Assembly (NCBI GenBank): GCA_964620905.1
Contig: CAZUKA010000001.1
Coordinates: forward strand, 583,646 to 647,645
Source of the DNA: an uncultured Gammaproteobacteria bacterium
GTDB lineage: Bacteria > Patescibacteriota > Patescibacteriia > S139-126
Reading direction: 5' to 3'
Length of the DNA: 64,000 bases
Below the pieces are notes generated by a model. The model was given only the letters and a program-made list of their open reading frames with translations. It was not told where the DNA came from and did not search any database. Positions 7,094 to 51,833 of the stretch are shown here, piece by piece (positions within the stretch are counted from its first letter, which is position 1; each line of letters opens with the position of its first letter). The position numbers and the translations under genes were made by a program.

Positions 7094-7100
7094 ATAATTT

Positions 7101-7175
7101 GGAGCGGGTAGGGGGAATCGAACCCCCATCTTCAGCTTGGAAAGCTGTAATAATAGCCATTATACGATACCCGCT
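7101..7175 (-). tRNA. tRNA-Gly (anticodon UCC)
   Basis: Cloverleaf on reverse strand; acceptor GCGGGTA/TACCCGC, anticodon loop UUUCCAA, T-arm GGGGGTTCGATTCCCCC, CCA encoded. Confidence 0.8.
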
Positions 7176-7178
7176 TAA

Positions 7179-7255
7179 TGGTCGGGGTGAGAGGGCTCGA
7201 ACCTCCGACCTCCTGCTCCCAAAGCAGGCGCGCTAGCCAACTGCGCTACACCCCG
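7179..7255 (-). tRNA. tRNA-Pro (anticodon UGG)
   Basis: Reverse strand CGGGGTGTAGCGCAGTTGG...anticodon loop UUUGGGA...GGTTCGAGCC; CCA encoded. Confidence 0.85.
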
Positions 7256-7376
7256 ATAATTAAATTATAAAATATAAATTTTAAATTATAAATATTTATA
7301 ATTTAGTACAAATAAGTCCTAAATTCTAAAATCCAATTATATTTTTAGTATCTAGAATTTAGGACTTATGTTTTAG

Positions 7377-7451
7377 TGGTGCCGAGGGGCAGAATTGAAC
7401 TGCCGACGCAAGGATTTTCAGTCCTTCGCTCTACCACTGAGCTACCTCGGC
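7377..7451 (-). tRNA. tRNA-Phe (anticodon GAA)
   Basis: Reverse strand GCCGAGGTAGCTCAGTGGTAGAGC...anticodon loop CUGAAAA...GGCAGTTCAATTCTGCC; CCA encoded. Confidence 0.85.
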
Positions 7452-7572
7452 CCAAATAGAATTTTGAATCTTGAATATAGGATTTAGAATGTAAGATGAT
7501 AATTAAAAAAATTTATTACTGTGCTAAATCCTAATTCAATATTCTATATTCCAAATTCTATATTCTTACTAA

Positions 7573-7649
7573 TGGTGGGCATGGATGGATTCGAACCATC
7601 GACCTCGTCATTATCAGTGACGCGCTCTAACCAACTGAGCTACATGCCC
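7573..7649 (-). tRNA. tRNA-Ile (anticodon GAU)
   Basis: Reverse strand GGGCATGTAGCTCAGTTGGTTAGAGC...anticodon loop CUGAUAA...GGTTCGAATCC; CCA encoded. Confidence 0.85.
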
Positions 7650-9930: not shown

Positions 9931-10005
9931 GGCCTGGTAGCCAAGTGGTAAGGCAACGGTCTGCAAAACCGTTATACGGGGGTTCAACTCCCCCCCAGGC
10001 CTCCA
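9931..10005 (+). tRNA. tRNA-Cys (anticodon GCA)
   Basis: GGCCTGGTAGCCAAGTGGTAAGGC...anticodon loop CUGCAAA...GGTTCAACTCCCCC...CCA. Confidence 0.85.
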
Positions 10006-34987: not shown

Positions 34988-35120
34988 TTGATTTTTTATC
35001 AATAAAATATTAAAATTAATTTACAAAAACCTGTATTCTGAACTGTCACCGGATGGTGGCGTGGCTGGGACATCCAGTCTAGGAACGTGGTTGGATCTAA
35101 CCCCTTTGGGGTTATTTTTT
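34988..35120 (+). ncRNA. candidate small RNA: promoter TTGATT-17-TAAAAT (34988-35016) + ~95-nt GC-richer segment + intrinsic terminator AACCCC-TTT-GGGGTT-ATTTTTT (35099-35120)
   Basis: Promoter and terminator both on plus strand with no ORF between; convergent with DUF3800 gene 3' end. Confidence 0.25.
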
Positions 35121-36884: not shown

Positions 36885-37157
36885 ATTCCTCTTCCCACAA
36901 AGGAAAGAGGTAAATAAAAAATCGACCCACCTGCCATCGCTATACTCAGTCATTAGGGGCAGGCTTTTATCTTTCCCCAACTTGGGGCTGAATTTGGCAC
37001 CTTATAAAAGCGTCATCTTTTACAGGTTGCCGGGTAGGTCTTAGGGTCAGATCCCTCGCTACCACTCTGGATAAACTTAGGCTATTCAATTGTGACTAAA
37101 TAATACTACTAGCGAAGATTATCGTCAAATTTTATGTATGTAATTAATTATATAATT
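36885..37157 (-). other. ~270-nt noncoding, locally GC-richer structured segment ending in minus-strand hairpin/U-tract (possible ncRNA or structured UTR)
   Basis: Multiple perfect short hairpins (CCCCAAGTTGGGG; GGTAG...CTACC; CCTCTTCC...GGAAAGAGG) and no ORF with RBS. Confidence 0.2.
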
Positions 37158-37883: not shown

Positions 37884-38339
37884 TTAATTTGATCCATTTT
37901 TTTCTAAGTTATTTAAAAGTTTAATAACCTCATCTTCTATTGATAAGTCTAAATTCTTATCATATATTTTCTGATATAGTAAAGGAAATCCACCATTAGC
38001 ATATTCTTCAATTATTTTTAATACTTCAGTTCCATTAGATAATATATTATAATCATAATTACTTTCCGCTAATACTAAAGATCTTATTAAAACTTTATAA
38101 TCATTTGAAATACTTCTATAAAGCCTTATATCAGTACTTTTATTTGTTTTTTTTCTATTTTTATTTAGAAAACCAAAAACAGCAGCTAAAATAAGAACGT
38201 GGCCTTGTTCCTGACCAGAAAAACAAGTACCAGCATTTTTGTCTATTAAAGGTATTAAATAATCATTTTTGATCTTTAAATCAAGTCTTATGAATTGTGG
38301 ATAATTTTGATCAATTTCGTTTGTCATGATATGGAACAA
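37884..38339 (-). CDS. hypothetical protein, overlaps 3' end of ATPase gene by 29 nt
   Basis: 151 aa, no motif. Confidence 0.3.
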   Translation of the reverse strand: MFHIMTNEIDQNYPQFIRLDLKIKNDYLIPLIDKNAGTCFSGQEQGHVLILAAVFGFLNKNRKKTNKSTDIRLYRSISNDYKVLIRSLVLAESNYDYNILSNGTEVLKIIEEYANGGFPLLYQKIYDKNLDLSIEDEVIKLLNNLEKNGSN

Positions 38340-40239
38340 TTATTGTAGATTGTTGATTAATAGGGTCTTTCTGAAGTTGATATACTCGATTTTTTGGTAC
38401 CCTATCTTTAATATATTCTTTAATCTCATGATCGTCTAAACTAAAAATAAACATCTGTTTATTTGGAGCATAATCATGAAGTATTTCTAAAAGATTTCTT
38501 TTTATATCCCCCCCTAAATTTGAAAGTGGGGCATCAAAAAATATTGGCGTTTCATTAAATCCACTAAGATCAGCTATGGCTCTCATTGTTGCTAAAGCCA
38601 AAACTTTACCTTCTCCTATTGATAATTCATTTTTATTAGTAACTTGGTTTTTCATTTTTACATTTATACCATAAAATTCATTAAATTCTATTAATTCATA
38701 TTCTTGTTCATCCCAAAACAATTCTCTAAAATATTTTTCTGTATTATGAGATAAAATATCTCTAATTCTATTAGTAATATGTTCCCTAATAGTATGTATA
38801 ATTTTTTCAGAAATCTGTAAAAAATCTTTTATTTTAATTGCTTCTAAATTTTTTTCTTTTAGCTTACTATACTTATCAAACTGTTCTTCTATTTTTACTA
38901 GATTATTTAAATCATTATTATTTCTTTCCTTTAATTCTCCGAGTTTAGTCTGATGTTCGCCAATTCTATTTTCTAAATCTGTTAAAGCTATTTCTATATT
39001 AGAAACCTCCTTATTACTTGAATTTCCTAATTTTTCTTTTATTTCTTTCAATTCTCTGTCGATTTCATTTTTTTGTATATAAATTTTTGCTCTTTCAGTA
39101 GTTAATAACTCTAAATCTTTTTTTAGTTTATACAATCCATCTAAAATACTACTGATAATAACTTTATCACTGCCAATAGCGGAACGAACGCTAACTGGTT
39201 CATATTCAGTCATGAGTTTATTTAGTGCTATATAAGAACCATCACTTTTATTTATATCTCTACCACAAATACAAACTCCTTTATTTAATATTTCTTTAAT
39301 ATAAGCTACCTCAATATCTGCGGGTAATTTGTATTCGTGTAAATCATTATACGATTTAATTAATATTTCTTTAAGATATAAAAAAGATGTTTTTTCAGTA
39401 AGTAATTCATTAATTCTTATTTTTATTTTATCGAAATCTTCTTCTTTAATTTTAAATTCGGATTCTAATTTATCCCTTCTTTCAGCTAAATCTTTAATAT
39501 TACTATATGTTTTTTGTTCTTTTTTATATTCATTGAGCTGTTCTTTAAGTTTACTAATCTCAATTTCTTTATCTTTTATTTTTTCATTATTCTTTTCTAT
39601 CTCATTTTTTAATTTATCCATTTTTTCAGTCATTTCTTCAAGCTCAGGAATACCCTTACCTACTTCTTTTCTAAATGTAGAAATTATATTATTAAGGTGT
39701 TCAATTGAACGATCTAAGATTGTTACATCAGATACACTCCAAACACCGTCACGTAATTCTTTTTCAAAGCCGGGCTTATATAAATGTTCTAGATTTTCAC
39801 CTGCAAAAATAAAATATTTTCTTAAATTTTTTGGTAAATACACATTTCTAACGGTTTCTGGATTTGGAACAAGTTTCCAATCATTTTTATCCAACCTGTA
39901 AACATTAAACTTCGAATCTTGGGTTGGTCTCATAGATCTTACAAACCTATATGTATTATTTTCATCAGAAACTTGGATATCTACTTTAATCTCATCAAAT
40001 TCGTTTTCTTTTTCTGCGTCTGTATTTAATATTCCATCACTTAATAAATTTTTTTGCTCAATACTCTGTGTAAAAGGAATCTCTTCATAAAGACACCAAC
40101 AAATAGCATTTAAAAAATTTGATTTACCTAAATAATTTTTACCTATAAAAATAAATATACCAGAACTAGGATCTGGTTTTATTTCTACTTGTCTAAATCT
40201 TTTAAAATTTTGAATATAAATTCTATCAACCTTTATCAT
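38311..40239 (-). CDS. SMC/Rad50/RecN/DndD-like coiled-coil ABC ATPase
   Basis: 642 aa; N-terminal Walker A IFIGKNYLGKSN; ~350-aa K/E-rich coiled coil; C-terminal ABC signature LSIGEGKVLALA and Walker B PIFFDAP. Confidence 0.65.
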   Translation of the reverse strand: MIKVDRIYIQNFKRFRQVEIKPDPSSGIFIFIGKNYLGKSNFLNAICWCLYEEIPFTQSIEQKNLLSDGILNTDAEKENEFDEIKVDIQVSDENNTYRFVRSMRPTQDSKFNVYRLDKNDWKLVPNPETVRNVYLPKNLRKYFIFAGENLEHLYKPGFEKELRDGVWSVSDVTILDRSIEHLNNIISTFRKEVGKGIPELEEMTEKMDKLKNEIEKNNEKIKDKEIEISKLKEQLNEYKKEQKTYSNIKDLAERRDKLESEFKIKEEDFDKIKIRINELLTEKTSFLYLKEILIKSYNDLHEYKLPADIEVAYIKEILNKGVCICGRDINKSDGSYIALNKLMTEYEPVSVRSAIGSDKVIISSILDGLYKLKKDLELLTTERAKIYIQKNEIDRELKEIKEKLGNSSNKEVSNIEIALTDLENRIGEHQTKLGELKERNNNDLNNLVKIEEQFDKYSKLKEKNLEAIKIKDFLQISEKIIHTIREHITNRIRDILSHNTEKYFRELFWDEQEYELIEFNEFYGINVKMKNQVTNKNELSIGEGKVLALATMRAIADLSGFNETPIFFDAPLSNLGGDIKRNLLEILHDYAPNKQMFIFSLDDHEIKEYIKDRVPKNRVYQLQKDPINQQSTIIVPYHDKRN

Positions 40240-40243
40240 AAAA

Positions 40244-40417
40244 TTAAATTGCAGAATTTAATAACTCTTTTACTTTATTCTCTATAGCACTTTTATATGC
40301 AAATCTATCTAAATCAATATTTTCTTTTTCAAATTCTGTAAGCCATAATAAAAAATTTTGAACCTCTTCTGAAGCATCTACTAAACTATTAATTTCACTT
40401 ATTATATCAGGATTCAT
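40244..40417 (-). CDS. 57-aa ORF (MNPDIISEINSLVDASEEVQNFLLWLTEFEKENIDLDRFAYKSAIENKVKELLNSAI), translationally coupled between helicase and ATPase genes
   Basis: Start in TAATATG overlap with upstream stop; 4 nt before ATPase start; below the 60-aa ORF-track cutoff. Confidence 0.35.
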   Translation of the reverse strand: MNPDIISEINSLVDASEEVQNFLLWLTEFEKENIDLDRFAYKSAIENKVKELLNSAI

Positions 40418-40418
40418 A

Positions 40419-42524
40419 TTATAAATAAATTTTATATTTTTTCATAGTTTCTTTCAAAACTTCATAAGATACTGACGGATTTTCCGAAGTATCTACAAAG
40501 TCTCTTATACGTTCAAATTCTTTTTTTAATATTGAATGCTCAATTTTATCATCTATTTCATCTAAATTTTTTGGTGGTAATACAAAAACATCATATATCT
40601 CTGCAACTTTTTTATCAAGTGCTTTTCTTAATACCCTTCCTCTTCTTTGAATATATTCTCTAGAATTAGTTGTGCTTGCATTAATTATAGCAATTTTTGC
40701 TTCAGGTATGTCAACTCCTTCATCAAGAATTTTAACAGCTACTAAAACTTGATATTCTCCTTTTGCAAATGATTTAAGTAAATAATCTCTGTCATCCGAA
40801 GATTCATCTTCAGTAATTTTATGGTTTAATAAGTTCATTTCATTTAATATTTTTTGAATAGATTCTACTTGTTTTTTATTATCACAATAAATAAGAACGT
40901 GTTTTAAATTTGTTTTATATTTTAAAATTAATTTTTGTAAAATGTGTTTTGTAACTTCAATTTTGTTATGTGCATTTTTCAATATTCGACTCCTAAATAA
41001 CAATAAATTTTTAATATTTTTATTATTAAATATATTTTCTTTTTGAAATTTTTCATACATTAATTTACGTGAAATTTTTTTTGAAATTTCATAATACTCA
41101 TCATACTCTTCAAGCGATAGATAAGAAGGTTCGGGATAATAATTATACGGTGTTAGATATCCATCATCTATGGCATCTTTTATTGTGTACTCAAATACTA
41201 TCTTGTTAAAATATTTTATTATAATTTCTGTTCCTTCTTCATCAAAATGTCTACTGGGAGTTGCAGAAAGACCAATTCTTTTAGAATAAAGATCTAGCAA
41301 TCCATTTTGTGATTCTGGAGCGCCAGCATTATGTAACTCATCTGCAATATATAAAAAATTACTAGGGTCTATATTAAATGAATTTAATATTTCTATGAAG
41401 TTTTTGCTTGCTAAACTGCCATATAAACCAACTATAAATATATGTTTTATTCCATTTTTATTAAATCCTGGTAAAATCATTTTAAGATTTTTTTTCCAAA
41501 TATTTGCATTTCCATGAACTTCAATAATAGGGACTCCGGGAAACATTATTTGAATATCTTTGTCTATCCATTGTCTAACTAGATGTTCATATGGCATAGC
41601 TATAACACAAATCAATTTATTTGAATCAAATAAATTTTTTACTATTGAAAGGGCTGTTTTTGTTTTTCCTGATCCGGTAGCCATAGATAGAATTCCCTTA
41701 TAATTATTTGATAACCATGATTTCACAGCTTTTTTTTGATAATCTCTCAATTCAAAAATACTTTTATTAACCGGCATTTCATTTGTTAACTTGTTATTAT
41801 TTCTATCTTCAAATAATTTTTTTAATGGGTATTTATCGATATTAATCTTATCTGATTCTTCTGGTGCAACACTAATAATTTTATTTTTTACTGCGTTTGG
41901 TAAATCAAATACATAGATATTATTTGCTGAACCATTCCAATACTTTTCAAATAATTGTATATCCCTATCCAAATACCTTTTTTGTTCGTCATTCCATCCA
42001 CAAAAAACTTTGAATTCCTCAATATTATATTTCCATCCTCTTGCAGATTCATTATTTGAACCACTAAATGATATGATATTATTTTTTTCATCATACAAAA
42101 TACCCACCTTTTGATGTAATAAATTTTTTTGTTTACCTATAGCAATTTTTAATTCTAATTTATTATTAAATAACATCCAACCAAACGCTGCTATATGATT
42201 CTTAAAAATATTATTTTCTAAATCCCACTCATGAATCTCATTCATAAGTAATTCTTCAAGCTTTTCAGGGTTATTAACTAAATCATTTATTATTATATTA
42301 TCGTCTTCTTGTAATTCATGGTTTACAATCATCTGTATTTTCCCTGACTTTTTTATAAACCTTGATAAACCTTGTGATGCTACTGCAAAAGTGCTAGATG
42401 AAAAAAAACCACCTATTCTTTTATATTTTATTGATTCTGATAGAGCAGGAATATAAAAATCATCCAAAATATTATCCTCGTCTGAATTATATGAAATCTT
42501 AATATTAATATCTTTTAATGACAT
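40419..42524 (-). CDS. PLD-like (HKD) nuclease domain fused to SF2 (ResIII/DEAH-type) helicase
   Basis: 701 aa; HKD motif HQKVGILYDEKNNIISFSGSNN; helicase motif I MATGSGKTKT, II IADELHNAG, III LSATPSR, VI QRRGRVLRK. Confidence 0.7.
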   Translation of the reverse strand: MSLKDINIKISYNSDEDNILDDFYIPALSESIKYKRIGGFFSSSTFAVASQGLSRFIKKSGKIQMIVNHELQEDDNIIINDLVNNPEKLEELLMNEIHEWDLENNIFKNHIAAFGWMLFNNKLELKIAIGKQKNLLHQKVGILYDEKNNIISFSGSNNESARGWKYNIEEFKVFCGWNDEQKRYLDRDIQLFEKYWNGSANNIYVFDLPNAVKNKIISVAPEESDKINIDKYPLKKLFEDRNNNKLTNEMPVNKSIFELRDYQKKAVKSWLSNNYKGILSMATGSGKTKTALSIVKNLFDSNKLICVIAMPYEHLVRQWIDKDIQIMFPGVPIIEVHGNANIWKKNLKMILPGFNKNGIKHIFIVGLYGSLASKNFIEILNSFNIDPSNFLYIADELHNAGAPESQNGLLDLYSKRIGLSATPSRHFDEEGTEIIIKYFNKIVFEYTIKDAIDDGYLTPYNYYPEPSYLSLEEYDEYYEISKKISRKLMYEKFQKENIFNNKNIKNLLLFRSRILKNAHNKIEVTKHILQKLILKYKTNLKHVLIYCDNKKQVESIQKILNEMNLLNHKITEDESSDDRDYLLKSFAKGEYQVLVAVKILDEGVDIPEAKIAIINASTTNSREYIQRRGRVLRKALDKKVAEIYDVFVLPPKNLDEIDDKIEHSILKKEFERIRDFVDTSENPSVSYEVLKETMKKYKIYL

Positions 42525-42542
42525 AATTATGATCTATAATAT

Positions 42543-43289
42543 TTACTTTTCATAACTACTACGTGCGTTCCACCATGCACAATATTCACATTCTTCTCCT
42601 GATTTGGGCATTTTATTACTTTCTAAACATGCTTTTATTTCAAAAATAATAGGTTCCACCCAAGAATCATCCCCGTCATGAGAAATAAGCTTAATATCAA
42701 ATTCAATTTTTTTATCAAATGCCTGTTGATCATATTTGCCAGTACAATAAACAAAATAACCAGTATTAGAAACTTTTAATTTGTTTTTACGTAATATCCA
42801 TTGATACACTTCCATTTGTCTTTTATATGACTCATGCCATTTACCCTCTAATTCTTCAACGGGATTATTTTTTGCCGTAGCTTTATAATCAACAACTATA
42901 TATTCACCTTTTTTATTAATCCATAAATCATCAATTGCCCCTGTCACTAATATATTTGTGTTATCATGTAAATATTGAACACCCTTAAAATTTTCTCTCC
43001 ATTCATCAATTTTTTTATGTGCTACTGGTACTGCATCTATTTTATATTCTTTTTGCAACGGATGTTGTTTGTTCTTAGCTCTATAAACATCAAATTCTTG
43101 CTTTAATTGATAATCTACAGCTTTATTTAATTGAAAAGATGGTATGGACGGTCGTTTTGTTCCTAATTTGTTATCCACATAAAAACAACGAGGGCATTCT
43201 TGAAATAAACCAATTTTTGCTCTACTTAATTTCCAATTTTTACCACCATAATTCCATGATGGGCCTCTATGTGGAGTGTAATCAGGCAT
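42543..43289 (-). CDS. Cas4/RecB-family PD-(D/E)xK nuclease with Fe-S cysteine cluster
   Basis: 248 aa; N-term CPRC, nuclease motifs GAIDDL...EYIVVDYK, QxxxY (KRQMEVYQWI), C-term C-x13-CEYC. Confidence 0.6.
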   Translation of the reverse strand: MPDYTPHRGPSWNYGGKNWKLSRAKIGLFQECPRCFYVDNKLGTKRPSIPSFQLNKAVDYQLKQEFDVYRAKNKQHPLQKEYKIDAVPVAHKKIDEWRENFKGVQYLHDNTNILVTGAIDDLWINKKGEYIVVDYKATAKNNPVEELEGKWHESYKRQMEVYQWILRKNKLKVSNTGYFVYCTGKYDQQAFDKKIEFDIKLISHDGDDSWVEPIIFEIKACLESNKMPKSGEECEYCAWWNARSSYEK

Positions 43290-43298
43290 AATTATTTT

Positions 43299-43889
43299 TT
43301 ATCCTACTAAACCTAACTTTTTTAAAATATCAGTAAAAGCAACATACTCTATATTATGTTCTTTATAAAAAGCTAAACTTTCTTGCAATTCCTTAGTTTG
43401 AAAATTTTTATCTAATAGGTCACCAAAAGCAAATTTTTTTTTAGCTTCATATTCTTGATATCCTACCAATACTATTTGCAACGGTTTGTTATACAAAGAA
43501 GGTACCTCGCCATATTTCAAAGGTACCCCCAAAATTTTTTCACCTGCTGTTCCGGTAGTAGTCCAGTTTCTGCCTTTTACTTCATATACATATTGATCAC
43601 ACTCTAAATCTGGCTGATAACCTTTTTTACTTAATTTACTTTTATAAATTTTAGCTTTCCTAACATTTTTCCTACCCAATCTTGTCAAAGCTTCCATGAC
43701 TAAATCTTGACACAACTTAGTTGTCCATTGACCACCGCCATTACCTGCTGTAACTTTGTCACCCCATTCATCTTCAATTTTTTTGGCTCTGTTTAAATCA
43801 GTCTGTCTACTGGTTGTTGCTAAAGTAACGTCGGTTATACCTTGGTAGCACCATTTGATTACTTCTGGATTGTCCAATAAACTTGCCAT
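43299..43889 (-). CDS. putative type II restriction endonuclease (PD-ExK) cognate to adjacent methyltransferase
   Basis: 196 aa; YQPDLECDQYVYEVKG (PD...EVK); 3-nt gap from MTase gene. Confidence 0.4.
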   Translation of the reverse strand: MASLLDNPEVIKWCYQGITDVTLATTSRQTDLNRAKKIEDEWGDKVTAGNGGGQWTTKLCQDLVMEALTRLGRKNVRKAKIYKSKLSKKGYQPDLECDQYVYEVKGRNWTTTGTAGEKILGVPLKYGEVPSLYNKPLQIVLVGYQEYEAKKKFAFGDLLDKNFQTKELQESLAFYKEHNIEYVAFTDILKKLGLVG

Positions 43890-43892
43890 TAA

Positions 43893-44714
43893 TTATTTTA
43901 TTAAATCTTTAAATCTCTTTTTTGATAAATCGAGGTATTTCTTTTCCATATCTATACCAACAAATTTTCTTTCGTTTAAAACAGCTGCGAGTCCAGTGGT
44001 AGAACTACCAGTAAAAGGATCAAGCACAACATCTCCTTTGTCTGTGCTGGCTAAAATAATACGCACTAAAAGATCGATTGGTTTTTGTGTAGGGTGTTTG
44101 CCAAACTTTTTTTCATCTTTTTTTGGCGGACGAATTGCCCACACACTGCGCATTTGCAAATCTGGTTTTTTTAAAAAATCTTCCTGCCACTTACCATGCT
44201 TCATCAATTTATAATTGAATTTGTGTTTAGCTTTTTTTTCTTTCCGGGCCCAGATAATTGTTTCGTGACTAGCAGTAAAAAAACGACAACTTAAATTTGG
44301 TGAAGCATTGGGTTTAAACCACGCTATGTCGTTTAAAATATGATAGCCCAATGCTTGAATGGCATGACCACATTGATAAATAGAATGATACGTTCCGCTT
44401 ACCCAAATTGTTCCGCCTGGTTTTAAAACCCTCTTACATGCTTCCAGCCATTTGAAATGAAATTCATAGTCACCATTAAAACCTTTACTTTTATCCCATT
44501 CACCTTTATTAACACTTACTCTCCTGCCAGCATGGACGGAAAAGCCACCATTGGAAAGATTGTATGGAGGATCAGCAAATATCATATCTATGGAATTACC
44601 TGGGAGTTGTTGTAAAAACTCCAAAGAATTCGCCTGATATAAAACAAAGTTATTTGTTTTAAAATAAGGCTTTTCCTTAACTGGCGCTAATATTTTTTTA
44701 TGCTTTTTAAACAT
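43893..44714 (-). CDS. beta-class amino-DNA methyltransferase (N6-adenine or N4-cytosine)
   Basis: 273 aa; motif IV IFADPPYNLS near N-terminus, motif I VLDPFTGSSTTGLAA near C-terminus (IV-TRD-I order). Confidence 0.8.
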   Translation of the reverse strand: MFKKHKKILAPVKEKPYFKTNNFVLYQANSLEFLQQLPGNSIDMIFADPPYNLSNGGFSVHAGRRVSVNKGEWDKSKGFNGDYEFHFKWLEACKRVLKPGGTIWVSGTYHSIYQCGHAIQALGYHILNDIAWFKPNASPNLSCRFFTASHETIIWARKEKKAKHKFNYKLMKHGKWQEDFLKKPDLQMRSVWAIRPPKKDEKKFGKHPTQKPIDLLVRIILASTDKGDVVLDPFTGSSTTGLAAVLNERKFVGIDMEKKYLDLSKKRFKDLIK

Positions 44715-44756: not shown

Positions 44757-45524
44757 TTACTGACATGCGCCGGAGGAAGAAACGGTTATACCGGCAAGGG
44801 TTGCCTGACAAGAGTTACCATAAGTTTCTCCGTCACACCCGCACACTGGTGAATAAATCAATGCACAAGCTTGGGGTTTGGTTTTACACTCACCCACTTG
44901 GTTACACTGTCCTACTTCTTTGGCACAATATTCACTAGCTTCACAATCACTACTTGATTGGCAAGTATTTAGACACTGCCCGTTATATTCTACACTCACT
45001 CCCGCGGCTCTAGCTTGGCAAGAGTTGCCATAGGTTTTACCATCACAACCACACACCGGAGCATACTGCAAAGTACAAGCTTCAGATTTGGCTACACACT
45101 CACCACTACCACCACATTGACCGGTTTTGTATTCACAATAAAAATTGGTTTGGCAGTCAGTGTCAGTTTGGCAAATATTGCTTGGCGGTTCTTGGGCTGG
45201 TGGTTGATTGTTGGGTGCTTGATTGTCTTGATTGTTCTGTTGCGGTTGGTTGTCTGTTACCACTGGTTCATTGTTAAATACCGGCTCATTGGCAGGTGAA
45301 GGTTCATCGGTTATTACTACCTCACCTGTTTCAATTGTATCATCTACTACTATATCTTCTGTGGGAGTAAACTCTTCTGGTTCAACCACCTGCACTGTTT
45401 GCGTATCAGTTTGACTGGTAAAGTCAGAAACTTTTTTGTCGCCTGCTTGTTGCCACCACCAAATTGCAACTCCCAAAAGCAAGATAAGTAAAAGAACAAT
45501 TATAATATATATATTTTTGCGCAT
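44757..45524 (-). CDS. membrane-anchored secreted protein with Q/N/P-rich linker and two Kazal-like domains
   Basis: CTLQYAPVCGCDGKTYGNSCQARAAG...C and CALIYSPVCGCDGETYGNSCQATLAG...C match Kazal spacing (PVCG.DG.TY.N.C). Confidence 0.55.
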   Translation of the reverse strand: MRKNIYIIIVLLLILLLGVAIWWWQQAGDKKVSDFTSQTDTQTVQVVEPEEFTPTEDIVVDDTIETGEVVITDEPSPANEPVFNNEPVVTDNQPQQNNQDNQAPNNQPPAQEPPSNICQTDTDCQTNFYCEYKTGQCGGSGECVAKSEACTLQYAPVCGCDGKTYGNSCQARAAGVSVEYNGQCLNTCQSSSDCEASEYCAKEVGQCNQVGECKTKPQACALIYSPVCGCDGETYGNSCQATLAGITVSSSGACQ

Positions 45525-45702: not shown

Positions 45703-46749
45703 TTATTTAAAATAATTACCAACAGCATCTTCAAACTGCTCAATAAATATTTGTTTAAAATAAGAAATATTATTTATTTCATAAAATAATATAACGGCTT
45801 TTTTATACTCCTCAACATCCACTATTCTATAAGAAAGCGGAATAGAATTATGCGCCAACAAAATAGCATTGGAAATCATACGAGAAGTTCTTTTGTTGCC
45901 ATCTTCAAAAACTTGAATATAAGCGATAAGAATTGAGATTAAAAAAGCCTTTTCAAAAAATGATTCCTTCATATTGATTAGCTCAACCATATTTTGCAAT
46001 GCCTCTTTGATTTGTAGCTCATTATCCAAGGGTCTATATTTTGTGCCAGTAACTCCAACGCCTTCTTTCCTGATATTTTTAGAAATCCCAAGTTTTTTGG
46101 TTAAAACAGAATGGATATATTCAATATCAGCGCTGCGTAATTTAATAAAACGTTCTCTATTTTGAATAGCTTCATTGAAAGCGTCTTTGTGATTGAGAAT
46201 CATCTGAGTTTCTTCTTTAGTCTTACCTTTTCCGATGACATTATTTTTAATCAAAGCTTCCGTGCCTAAAAGCGAATAAGTATTCCCCTCAATGGCCGAT
46301 GACTTCCAAGAAAATTCAATCATTATCCGTTCAAACTCCTTATTAATGATTGTTTGACTGTCATATTTGGAAAAATTCTTAATAAATTCCCTTTGTAATT
46401 TTTCCAGTTTCTCTTTTTCTTCAGCTGAAAAAATATTATTACTCAAAATATTAAATATTTCAAAATTGAAACTTTCTTTTACTTCTCTTTTGAGATAAGG
46501 GACGGAAAAATATTTTTCAATATCTACTTCTTCTAAAATCTTAAAAGTTTTTGACAATAAATAAACAGTACTTTTGCCTGTACCTTTTTTAAAAACTAAA
46601 AATTTATCTTCCAATTCTTTTAAATCCCTTTGTAAAGTTTTTCTGTCAATATCTAAACGCAAAAAAGACAAAATCTCAACAAGTGACACCTCTGCCTTAT
46701 CTTTCATAAAAGCAGTTATTTTATTTTGTCTTATTTGTTTTTTATTCAT
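45703..46749 (-). CDS. Fic-family protein with N-terminal winged-HTH
   Basis: 348 aa; Fic motif VFEDGNKRTSR (HPFxDGNGR-like); N-terminal LVEILSFLRLDIDRKTLQRDLKELE wHTH-like. Confidence 0.7.
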   Translation of the reverse strand: MNKKQIRQNKITAFMKDKAEVSLVEILSFLRLDIDRKTLQRDLKELEDKFLVFKKGTGKSTVYLLSKTFKILEEVDIEKYFSVPYLKREVKESFNFEIFNILSNNIFSAEEKEKLEKLQREFIKNFSKYDSQTIINKEFERIMIEFSWKSSAIEGNTYSLLGTEALIKNNVIGKGKTKEETQMILNHKDAFNEAIQNRERFIKLRSADIEYIHSVLTKKLGISKNIRKEGVGVTGTKYRPLDNELQIKEALQNMVELINMKESFFEKAFLISILIAYIQVFEDGNKRTSRMISNAILLAHNSIPLSYRIVDVEEYKKAVILFYEINNISYFKQIFIEQFEDAVGNYFK

Positions 46750-46923: not shown

Positions 46924-48153
46924 TTATCTTACATTGCTAATGGAATTTTTGACAGTATCGTGTTTGGTTTTCATGATATCGCTCACCAGTTGAATAGTGT
47001 GAGCCATTTGTGCCCAAGGGGAAAGATCAATCCATTCTTTGTAACTATCATCACTTTCGCCTTCTACTCCGCCAATTTCCAAAATAGCCGGGCCACCTTG
47101 ATTTGAACTATCATCACCCATAAAATCTATTTCATCTGGCTCAATTCCGGTTTGTTCTAACTTTTCCCCTTCTTCTACTTTCCAGTTGTATCCCACATTG
47201 CCCTTTTTCTTACCTTCAGCTACACCTTGTTGAACAGTATGTGTTAATTCATTGGCTGACAGTCCTTTGCGTAGTAAAAAGGCATACCAAGGAAACTTAA
47301 CTTTTACTTGTCCTGTTTCCCAATTATCACTTTTATTTACTGCAACTTCGGCTCGATAATTTGTGGGAATAAAACCAAACAATTTGGCTGGCAATTTGTA
47401 CTCAAATTTAATTTCTTCATAGTTTAAACTCAAAGTTTCTGTTGGTACATCATCGGCCAGCATGGCACCTAAGGCGAAATTCTGCAGATCCTGTTCGCTT
47501 TGTACTTGCGCCCAAGTTTTGACAGTGGTTAAAAAAATTTGTTTTTGTTCGGTAGTTAAACCTTTGACATCACCCACGGCTATCCGCACACCACCAGCTG
47601 GCCAACCATCTCTAGGACCAGCACTAACCAACCTATCATTGCTAGCTGACTCATTATCAGTTGTTTCACCTTTGATGTCATCAATTTCTATAAATACTGG
47701 TACTAACTTGGTGCCTTCTTCTACTTTCCAACTGACCTCTACTTTACCTTTTTGCCTACCAGCTGCTTCTTCATCGTCATCACTATTTCCTTCAAGTAAC
47801 ACACCAAAATTTGTTGTCTGTTCATTTTCACCCATAAAGTCTATTTCATCTGGCTCAACACCAGTTTGTTCTAACTTTTCTCCTTCTTCTACTTTCCAGT
47901 TGTATTCTACATTACCTTTTTTCCCACTGTCAGTGGTGGTGCCTTGGGTACTATTGGGAACACTACCAGTGATTACTGGTTGGTCTGGATCACCCTCACT
48001 AGAACTATCAGCTGGACTAGCTACAAAATCCAAATCAGTCTCCTGATACTGTAAAATATTTACCGAAGTATCAGGTGCTCTTTGCACTTGAGCTGCGCCT
48101 AAAACTGGAGCAGCTAAAAAAACTAGACTTAAAATATATATAAAAACGTTCAT
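46924..48153 (-). CDS. secreted protein with three ~35-aa internal repeats
   Basis: Signal peptide; repeats KKGNVEYNWKVEEGEKLEQTG.EPDEIDFMG / QKGKVEVSWKVEEGTKL... / KKGNVGYNWKVEEGEKLEQTGIEPDEIDFMG. Confidence 0.35.
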   Translation of the reverse strand: MNVFIYILSLVFLAAPVLGAAQVQRAPDTSVNILQYQETDLDFVASPADSSSEGDPDQPVITGSVPNSTQGTTTDSGKKGNVEYNWKVEEGEKLEQTGVEPDEIDFMGENEQTTNFGVLLEGNSDDDEEAAGRQKGKVEVSWKVEEGTKLVPVFIEIDDIKGETTDNESASNDRLVSAGPRDGWPAGGVRIAVGDVKGLTTEQKQIFLTTVKTWAQVQSEQDLQNFALGAMLADDVPTETLSLNYEEIKFEYKLPAKLFGFIPTNYRAEVAVNKSDNWETGQVKVKFPWYAFLLRKGLSANELTHTVQQGVAEGKKKGNVGYNWKVEEGEKLEQTGIEPDEIDFMGDDSSNQGGPAILEIGGVEGESDDSYKEWIDLSPWAQMAHTIQLVSDIMKTKHDTVKNSISNVR

Positions 48154-48263: not shown

Positions 48264-49169
48264 TTAGGGTTTTAAAAGTGAGGAAAAATGCTTCCGGAGT
48301 TTGGCCATTTTGGGGGAAATTACCGCCTGGCAGTAAGCAGCTTCTGGATGATTTTTAAAATACTCTTGGTGATAGTCTTCGGCTGGATAAAATTTAGCCA
48401 AAGGTTTTACTTCGGTGACAATATTTTCTGAAAAGACTTGGTCTTGAATTAACTGTTTAATAAAATTTTCTGCAATTTCTTTTTGCTCCTCACTAGTTGC
48501 CAAAATGATCGAACGATACTGACTACCCACATCAGCTCCTTGGCGGTTACGGGTAGTAGGATCATGCAAAGTGAAAAATATTTGTAAAATCATTTCCAAA
48601 GAAATTTGTGTCTGGTCAAAGATTATTTCTACCACTTCTGCGTGATTGGTGGTGCCACTACCAACTTGTTCATAGGTGGGACTAACCGTATCACCTCCGG
48701 CATAACCTGACTTTACAGACAGTATCCCCCGCACTTGGGAAAAATATGCTTCCAAACACCAAAAACACCCGCCTCCCAAAACAATAGTTTGTTTACTGCT
48801 GGGTAATTTTTCAGTAGGAATAAAATGCAAAGACAATGAGTTCACACAGTGCCGCATGTCACGCGGAGTAAATTTTTCTCCACTAAACACATGCCCCAAG
48901 TGCCCCCCACAACGCGCACACAAAATCTCCGTGCGCGTGCCATCAGCATCAACTTGTCTAGTAACCGCTCCAGCAATTTCTTGATCAAAGCTGGGCCAAC
49001 CACAGTGAGCAGAAAATTTATCCGCTGAACGGTAGAGCCAAGCATTGCACTGTCGGCAAGTATAGATACCTGTGTCAAAAAAATTGTCATACTCACCACT
49101 ACCAGGCAGTTCCGTGCCTTTGTCAACCATTATTCTTTTTTCCTCTGGGGTAAGGGGGATTAATTTCAT
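48264..49169 (-). CDS. msrAB: bifunctional peptide methionine sulfoxide reductase MsrB-MsrA
   Basis: N-half MsrB (CRQCNAWLY...HCGWPSF...CARCGGHLGHVF), C-half MsrA (GGGCFWCLEAYF). Confidence 0.85.
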   Translation of the reverse strand: MKLIPLTPEEKRIMVDKGTELPGSGEYDNFFDTGIYTCRQCNAWLYRSADKFSAHCGWPSFDQEIAGAVTRQVDADGTRTEILCARCGGHLGHVFSGEKFTPRDMRHCVNSLSLHFIPTEKLPSSKQTIVLGGGCFWCLEAYFSQVRGILSVKSGYAGGDTVSPTYEQVGSGTTNHAEVVEIIFDQTQISLEMILQIFFTLHDPTTRNRQGADVGSQYRSIILATSEEQKEIAENFIKQLIQDQVFSENIVTEVKPLAKFYPAEDYHQEYFKNHPEAAYCQAVISPKMAKLRKHFSSLLKP

Positions 49170-51743: not shown

Positions 51744-51833
51744 TGGCGGAGAGGGTGGGATTTGAACCCACGAAGGACTTTCATCCTTACCGCATTTCGA
51801 GTGCGGCGCCTTCAACCACTCAGCCACCTCTCC
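51744..51833 (-). tRNA. tRNA-Ser (anticodon CGA), long variable arm
   Basis: Reverse strand GGAGAGGTGGCTGAGTGGTTGAAGGCG...anticodon loop CUCGAAA...variable arm...GGGTTCAAATCCCACCCTCTCCGCCA. Confidence 0.85.

Follow-up and report, generated by a model that had tools for sequence, protein, structure and literature searches.

What might a bacterium do with a pair of Kazal-type protease-inhibitor domains? The question is raised by a gene at positions 44757..45524, on the minus strand, of a stretch of 64,000 nucleotides (contig CAZUKA010000001.1) that was analysed as a whole and is called the window here. An earlier note, made from the sequence without database searches, had read the product as a secreted protein with two Kazal-like domains behind a linker rich in Gln, Asn and Pro. 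Our analysis places the two-module protein, which is probably tethered to the membrane, in a very large family of bacterial proteins with follistatin-like Kazal modules. From its reactive-site residues we predict that it inhibits serine proteases with a hydrophobic S1 pocket (subtilisin-, chymotrypsin-, elastase- or Streptomyces griseus protease B (SGPB)-like), and we put the probability of this reading at about 0.6.

Two Cysteine-Rich Modules of the Kazal Type

The coding sequence is complete, with an ATG start, 255 amino acid codons and a stop codon at 44757-44759, and coincides exactly with the proposed open reading frame (ORF). The protein starts with MRKNIYIIIVLLLILLLGVAIWWWQQAGDKK, continues as a stretch rich in Glu, Val, Thr, Pro, Gln and Asn that contains QQNNQDNQAPNNQPPAQEPP, and ends in two Cys-rich repeats. 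All 20 Cys residues fall within residues 118-254, in two units, C118-C184 and C188-C254. Each unit spans 67 aa from first to last Cys, longer than the 55 aa or so first estimated, contains 10 Cys and carries PVCGCDG(K/E)TYGNSC, so that the PVCG-DG-TYGNSC core recognised in the earlier note is present in both. The Cys spacing is identical in the two units: C-x5-C-x5-C-x6-C-x5-C-x6-C-x7-C-x-C-x8-C-x14-C. Module 1 (residues 118-184; 44973..45173, minus strand) comprises a hairpin subdomain with C118, C124, C130 and C137 and a Kazal subdomain from C143 to C184, and module 2 (residues 188-254; 44763..44963, minus strand) has the same 10-Cys spacing. Both were delimited from the Cys map, the Pfam matches, the AlphaFold2 (AF2) model, in which the predicted local distance difference test score (pLDDT) exceeded 90, and Foldseek. 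The coding repeats of the two modules share 60% nucleotide identity, which indicates that the duplication is old.

The domains are of the Kazal type by profile, by sequence match to solved structures and by predicted fold. With the full protein, Pfam Kazal_1 (PF00050) scored 40.7 bits (gathering cut-off 21, E 2.4e-10) and Kazal_2 (PF07648) scored 26.0 bits (gathering cut-off 22.8), each in two stretches; a 144-aa fragment searched alone reached 43.9 and 32.2 bits, respectively. This was the search proposed in the earlier note as a check, and neither of the outcomes that would have spoken against its claim, a lack of alignment to Kazal profiles or a different fold, was seen. No Pfam profile matched the N-terminal four-Cys hairpin subdomain at E-values up to 10. 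In a phmmer search of PDB sequences the matches included ovomucoid (1.5e-9), silk protease inhibitor 2 (SPI2) of Galleria (1.6e-8) and leech-derived tryptase inhibitor (LDTI; 2.8e-7); agrin and dozens of variants of the turkey ovomucoid third domain (OMTKY3) were listed as well.

An AF2 model of residues 112-255, built on an alignment of 37 sequences, had a mean pLDDT of 94.5, with strands and helix in the order expected for Kazal domains. In this the model agrees with the Kazal fold, which is defined by a short three-stranded sheet, a single alpha-helix and a loop that lies exposed between the second and third Cys. When the Kazal subdomains were compared with PDB structures by Foldseek, they were superposed on OMTKY3 from protease complexes with a root-mean-square deviation of 1.7-1.9 Å over 44 columns (probability 1.00), and matched SPI2 and LDTI with TMt values of 0.84 and 0.91. 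With the whole two-module model, follistatin was the best match (2b0u_D, E 5.3e-7, probability 1.00). E-values for follistatin chains ranged from 5e-7 to 1e-4, and whole-model TM-scores were low (0.31-0.36) because the geometry between modules differs. Each unit consists of an N-terminal four-Cys hairpin followed by a Kazal subdomain, an arrangement that resembles follistatin modules and would account for these matches.

As judged from their sequences, both modules are atypical Kazal domains. The Kazal cysteine spacing claimed in the earlier note holds for Cys II, III, IV and VI, which stand at classical distances (II-x7-III, III-x10-IV), and fails for Cys V, whose position is taken by Arg172 in module 1 and Leu243 in module 2. 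The classical six-Cys arrangement of bridges I-V, II-IV and III-VI is thus absent. An extra Cys is found two residues after Cys III, within PVCG-C-DG; in the phmmer alignment to the ovomucoid third domain, Cys160 lies opposite Ser26 of OMTKY3.

Covariation of Cysteines and a Putative Rewired Disulfide

We counted the cysteines in 442 Kazal cores or modules from 125 homologues. The extra Cys was present without Cys V in 415 of the 442, and Cys V without the extra Cys in 20; there were seven exceptions. The two residues are therefore mutually exclusive in 435 of 442 modules, which implies that the first disulfide has been rewired. Cys I stands one residue ahead of Cys II in the 20 classical cores and mostly six residues ahead in the PVCGCDG type (346 cases). 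Among internal modules of the latter type the number of Cys is even throughout: 10 in 283 modules, 6 in 21 and 8 in 3. If bridges II-IV and III-VI are kept, the 6-Cys form leaves only one possible third bridge, from the upstream Cys (I') to the extra Cys at III+2. Both module types, the classical one (C-x-C...VCGxDG...C-x2-C, with Cys V) and the 10-Cys PVCGCDG one, occur side by side in single chains of homologues P0055, P0082, P0088, P0094, P0009 and others, and this arrangement supports the proposed swap.

By this reasoning the bridges of module 1 would be C143-C160, C150-C169 and C158-C184, and the four N-terminal Cys would be paired among themselves; module 2 would be bridged in like manner. 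The pattern of the family can be written as C-x5/7-C-x5-C-x6/8-C-x5/7-C-x6-C-x7-C-G-C-D-G-x-T-Y-x-N-x-C-x14-C without Cys V, and both modules of the window fit it. No description of a change from Cys I-V to I'-(III+2) was found in the literature searched. Such rewiring may interest protein engineers who work on small stable inhibitor scaffolds.

Predicted Reactive-Site Loops

A reactive-site loop was located in each Kazal subdomain by alignment to OMTKY3, and its codons were read. The predicted loop of module 1 (45060..45080, minus strand) runs from P4 to P3' as A149-C-T-L152-Q-Y-A155, with Leu152 at P1. That of module 2 (44850..44870, minus strand) runs as A219-C-A-L222-I-Y-S225, with Leu222 at P1. 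The ovomucoid third domain reads ACTLEYRPLCG where module 1 reads ACTLQYAPVCG. In the same alignment, positions P6 to P3' of module 1 are S-E-A-C-T-L-Q-Y-A, followed by Gly at P14', Asn at P15' and Gln at P18', and the loop of module 2 is P-Q-A-C-A-L-I-Y-S. Module 1 shares 7 of the 12 consensus contact positions with OMTKY3 (P4, P3, P2, P1, P2', P14' and P15'). The residues typical of a canonical reactive site (Cys at P3, P1 two residues after Cys II, Tyr at P2' and Asn at P15') are present in both modules, as is TYGNSC.

Among seven orthologues, P1 is Leu or Met in module 1 and Leu or Ile in module 2. Variable sites were more frequent at Laskowski contact positions (11 of 22) than elsewhere (12 of 50; Fisher p = 0.03), and five of the eight variable positions in the Kazal subdomain of module 2 lie within P4-P3'. 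Hypervariable contact residues are a known pattern of Kazal inhibitors. In the OMTKY3 P1 series, Leu at P1 favours chymotrypsin, Streptomyces griseus proteases A and B, subtilisin and elastases. Loss of a classical bridge can be compatible with activity, as the atypical EPI1a domain of Phytophthora lacks one disulfide and is still a stable subtilisin inhibitor (PMC1236909).

Search for a Target and Weighing of Other Functions

The inhibitor might serve to regulate a secreted or envelope serine protease of the bacterium itself, and such cognate pairing is a common logic for bacterial inhibitors. A crude regular-expression scan of window ORFs of at least 80 aa found no S1 (GDSGGP-like) or S8 (GTSMAxP-like) protease motif in the 64 kb, which cover about 9% of the genome, so the partner could be encoded elsewhere. 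The five orthologous contigs had no conserved protease next to the gene, and a similarly crude scan found an S8-like motif in the flanks of only two or three of 79 distant loci. The lack of a neighbouring protease fits an inhibitor of foreign proteases somewhat better than a cognate pair, and the variation of contact residues among close orthologues better fits an arms race with external targets. We consider regulation of an own protease unlikely. The window also contained no thioredoxin or DsbA CxxC protein that could act as a partner in oxidative folding.

Several points weigh against inhibition as such. P1 is Asp or Glu in 124 of 417 modules of the wider family, which is unusual for classical inhibitors. 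Many eukaryotic Kazal/follistatin modules, as in follistatin, agrin and SPARC, are non-inhibitory, and follistatin was the best whole-model match. The enrichment of variation at contact sites is slight, with p = 0.03 from seven closely related sequences, and the disulfide map was drawn from Cys covariation only. The absence of S1 and S8 motifs in the window, with their near-absence from the distant flanks, means that nothing points to a target, if only weakly. Finally, no experimentally characterised bacterial Kazal protein was found in the literature searched.

Part of the same evidence would suit non-inhibitory modules that bind or adhere as those of follistatin, agrin and SPARC do, displayed on a stalk so as to attach an episymbiont to its host or partner or to capture a ligand. 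Besides the structural match and the acidic P1 residues common in the family, the extra N-terminal hairpin is typical of follistatin (FS) modules, the modules are borne on a long stalk, and some relatives, which reach 25 tandem modules and exceed 2,000 aa, look more like matrix proteins or adhesins. Yet the loop has residues that characterise strong inhibitors, with ACTL-Y shared with OMTKY3 and Asn retained at P15', and a hydrophobic P1 is kept in the orthologues while neighbouring contact positions change. Identity to the true inhibitors SPI2 and LDTI (49-50%) also exceeds that to follistatin (23-27%). A purely binding function is thus doubtful, at about the same level as control of an own protease, and inhibition of hydrophobic-S1 serine proteases is the reading that we prefer.

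Membrane Segment and Linker

The N-terminal membrane segment seen in the earlier note was recovered by both hydropathy and structure prediction. A hydrophobic helix of residues 5-24 (IYIIIVLLLILLLGVAIWWW; 45453..45512, minus strand) follows the basic MRKN. The peak 19-residue Kyte-Doolittle window covers residues 5-23 with a mean of 2.97, and the AF2 model of the full-length protein shows a single continuous helix at residues 3-28 (pLDDT 83-95). The start MRK(N/K)IY is common to orthologues at 86, 74, 71, 71 and 59% identity. A Trp belt, WWWQ, stands after the hydrophobic segment and is conserved among orthologues. No lipobox Cys was found at the N-terminus. A search of NCBIfam profiles gave only sub-threshold noise (RodZ, PASTA kinase) from the transmembrane and linker region and was uninformative.

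The helix is an export signal and probably a type II signal anchor with the N-terminus inside and the C-terminus outside. Release of the protein is not much less probable: if the segment were a Sec signal peptide and cleavage took place behind G18-V19-A20, a soluble inhibitor with an acidic N-terminal tail would be set free. The n-region MRKN, an h-region of 13 residues and the small residues Gly and Ala at -3 and -1 are compatible with a signal-peptidase I site, and the putative cleavage place reads GVIA, GAA or GVG in orthologues. The possible G-V-A site after residue 20 could permit cleavage and speaks against tethering. On the other side, hydrophobicity runs on beyond this site as IWWW, the AF2 helix spans it unbroken, and a conserved belt of Trp with QQ and basic residues behind it is what one typically sees at a membrane interface. 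The simplest interpretation is a signal anchor that carries a flexible stalk, and we lean moderately towards an anchored rather than a secreted protein.

The linker (residues 27-116; 45177..45446, minus strand) is 90 aa long, rich in Pro, Thr, Gln, Asn, Val and Glu, and acidic, with a net charge of -17. Both its composition and the AF2 model indicate disorder: residues 29 to about 112 had pLDDT values of 45-57 without secondary structure, compared with more than 90 in the modules. The low-complexity stretch of Gln, Asn and Pro reported in the earlier note lies within it. Length and sequence of the linker differ between orthologues, and the Q/N-rich stretch is confined to the protein studied here and the two relatives closest to it, being missing in P0002-P0004 and P0006. 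The linker is presumed to be a stalk.

Proposed Mechanism and Role

The following mechanism is proposed. The basic N-terminus and the 20-residue hydrophobic helix would direct export by the Sec pathway, and the helix would most likely hold the protein in the cytoplasmic membrane with its N-terminus in and its C-terminus out. The acidic, disordered linker of about 90 aa may act as a stalk that keeps the two tandem, disulfide-rich modules of 67 aa off the membrane. In each Kazal subdomain the classical bridge from Cys I to Cys V would be exchanged for one from the Cys six residues before Cys II to the extra Cys at III+2, with retention of bridges II-IV and III-VI that frame the reactive loop. 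Each subdomain would then present a canonical loop with Cys at P3, Thr or Ala at P2, Leu at P1, Tyr at P2' and the spacer Asn at P15', and would block serine proteases with a hydrophobic S1 pocket by the standard mechanism, as a substrate-like, tight-binding inhibitor.

The most likely role would be that of a cell-surface shield against the extracellular proteases of neighbouring, host or predatory organisms. Shielding from foreign proteases is favoured because no cognate protease is encoded nearby. If this is true, a small-genome bacterium devotes part of its limited coding capacity to an anti-protease surface shield, and the protein offers a testable handle on the survival of Candidate Phyla Radiation (CPR) cells attached to, or living among, protease-secreting neighbours. 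A narrower proposal, which we regard as improbable, gives the protein a part in host interaction: on an episymbiotic CPR cell it would neutralise subtilisin-like proteases of the host or of predators such as Myxococcota, the changes at contact positions being the trace of an arms race. Joined with it is the suggestion, equally a long shot, that the bacterial 10-Cys module with its rewired disulfide is a distinct, undescribed subclass of Kazal/follistatin domains.

Organism and Gene Neighbourhood

The window bears ordinary bacterial housekeeping genes, among them those for PolA, UvrB, GyrA, S1 and SpoIID. Its GyrA is 72-76% identical to GyrA proteins of Patescibacteria, Komeilibacteria, Kerfeldbacteria and Parcubacteria. 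The host is a small-genome bacterium of Patescibacteria (CPR), in line with the small genome supposed in the earlier note.

We also considered whether the gene might be a eukaryotic contaminant or have been acquired horizontally very recently, Kazal domains being best known from animals. The GC content of the gene (43%) exceeds that of the window (35-36%), but GC at third codon positions (GC3) is 0.316, compared with 0.302 ± 0.064 for the window genes; the excess lies in codon positions 1 and 2 and reflects amino-acid composition. The gene is flanked by bacterial genes in a 64-kb window with GyrA, PolA and UvrB, it holds the same position in five related contigs, and hundreds of bacterial homologues exist. 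With GC3 typical and synteny kept in the five contigs, this explanation was rejected; we give it hardly any weight.

In the related contigs the gene order is TspO, a YgaP-like transmembrane protein, a 148-aa protein, Cupin_2, then optionally MsrAB, a protein of 409 or 411 aa and Fic, and then the Kazal gene, after which variable defence genes follow (restriction-modification systems, NERD, MazG, toxin-antitoxin). Within this clade the Kazal gene is inherited vertically, and it forms the border of a defence hotspot. Its product had no PADLOC match, and its association with the defence island is therefore positional and not functional.

The island begins immediately after the Kazal gene in the downstream direction and occupies 37884-44714 on the minus strand. 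It contains a type II methyltransferase (43893-44714), a restriction endonuclease (43299-43889), a Cas4-like PD-(D/E)XK nuclease (42543-43289), PbeA (40419-42524; 722 bits) and PbeC (38311-40239; 273 bits), all on the minus strand. The genes at 38311-43289 may have been acquired recently, as suggested by a GC3 of just 0.13-0.17 where the window has 0.30. Different defence genes occupy this spot in related genomes.

Directly upstream of the Kazal gene is a gene for a Fic-domain protein of 348 aa (45703-46749, minus strand; PADLOC SoFic 2.3e-17), at a position where relatives carry a Fic/RhuM protein. Promoter and terminator scans and RNA folding of the 178-nt spacer upstream of the Kazal gene showed nothing beyond chance (z = -0.99). 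The next gene (46924-48153, minus strand) encodes a 409-aa protein with a signal-peptide-like N-terminus (MNVFIYILSLVFLAAPVLGAAQ). A motif of about 30 aa, KKGNVEYNWKVEEGEKLEQTG[VI]EPDEIDFMG, occurs in this protein in two near-identical copies and one diverged copy. No family matched the protein above threshold, and three related contigs have it conserved, with 409-411 aa, next to the Kazal locus. At 48264-49169 on the minus strand lies a gene for a fused MsrB-MsrA methionine sulfoxide reductase (SelR plus PMSR), which directly adjoins the Kazal gene in two related genomes. A functional link between the two, for example through envelope oxidative stress, is speculative.

Elsewhere in the window, two RNA elements scored above their Rfam gathering scores: an S-adenosylmethionine riboswitch (36964-37077, minus strand; 63.3 bits) and a DUF3800-IX small-RNA motif (35028-35096, plus strand; 56.4 bits). 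A tRNA cluster Gly-Pro-Phe-Ile is found at 7100-7649 (minus strand), and single genes for tRNA-Cys and tRNA-Ser at 9931-10005 (plus strand) and 51744-51833 (minus strand), respectively.

Family Size and Distribution

The earlier note held Kazal domains to be typically eukaryotic, but as far as databases show, such a domain in a bacterium is nothing unusual. An exhaustive phmmer search of 1.84 billion cluster representatives returned 11,931 proteins at E <= 1e-3, 4,283 at E <= 1e-10 and 763 at E <= 1e-30, some of them with up to 25 modules and more than 2,000 aa. A word-indexed search gave 461 homologues, nearly all with both Kazal_1 and Kazal_2, several of which, from Polyangiaceae or Myxococcota, already bear the NCBI name 'Kazal-type serine protease inhibitor domain-containing protein'. 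Among species-representative genomes, relatives are encoded at no fewer than 584 loci, mainly in Myxococcota, Planctomycetota and Verrucomicrobiota. The best 80 of these loci belong to Myxococcota, Planctomycetota (Phycisphaerae), Verrucomicrobiota, Acidobacteriota, Thermodesulfobacteriota, Nitrospirae and one Nitrosopumilus metagenome-assembled genome, and no close relative (above 55% identity) was among the GTDB-representative matches listed. The domain assignment is one that standard annotation pipelines already make, and the family is very large; the present case adds to what is known without overturning it.

The prominence of Myxococcota among the homologues hints at a pool of 'eukaryote-like' disulfide-rich inhibitors shared with CPR bacteria. 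Pacifastin-like serine-protease-inhibitor domains were described from Myxobacteria and CPR genomes in a 2026 study (PMC13388995). That a patchy occurrence of our family in CPR and Myxococcota would parallel these inhibitors is an idea to which we attach little probability.

Comparison with Known Systems

The closest counterparts are the bacterial proteins of the NCBI Kazal-type family, which have the same 10-Cys module with identical Cys spacing, 40-50% identity over both modules and the same Pfam matches. They usually have 3-25 modules and a signal-peptide- or lipoprotein-like N-terminus and come from large GC-rich genomes, whereas the window protein has two modules, a transmembrane helix and a long acidic stalk, and its genome has about 0.7 Mb and a GC content of 35%.

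OMTKY3 (MEROPS I1), the classical Kazal inhibitor, shares the fold of the Kazal subdomains, and its A-C-T-L-x-Y loop and TYGN-C core are identical to those of module 1. It differs in having disulfides I-V, II-IV and III-VI and in lacking the N-terminal hairpin. Of single-domain proteins, SPI2 of Galleria mellonella (PDB 2m5x, 4hgu) and LDTI matched best (E 1.6e-8, 49-50% identity, TMt 0.84-0.91). SPI2 is an inhibitor of subtilisin and proteinase K. Cys I and Cys V are missing from it too in the phmmer alignment. SPI2 and LDTI are free, single animal domains of 40-46 aa without a compensating extra disulfide or an N-terminal subdomain.

The FS modules of follistatin, FSTL3, agrin and SPARC are 10-Cys units in which an EGF-like N-terminal hairpin precedes a Kazal subdomain, and the window modules resemble them in the number of Cys and in general layout. 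They bind ligands of the transforming growth factor beta family or heparin and do not inhibit proteases. Their identity to the window modules is 23-27%, they keep Cys V, and Cys spacing and inferred connectivity differ. The nearest parallel to the proposed role is offered by EPI1 and EPI10 of Phytophthora, Kazal inhibitors secreted by a microbe against the subtilases of another organism, among which the two-disulfide EPI1a is active (PMC1236909). These proteins are eukaryotic (oomycete) and soluble, and the disulfide that they lack is III-VI.

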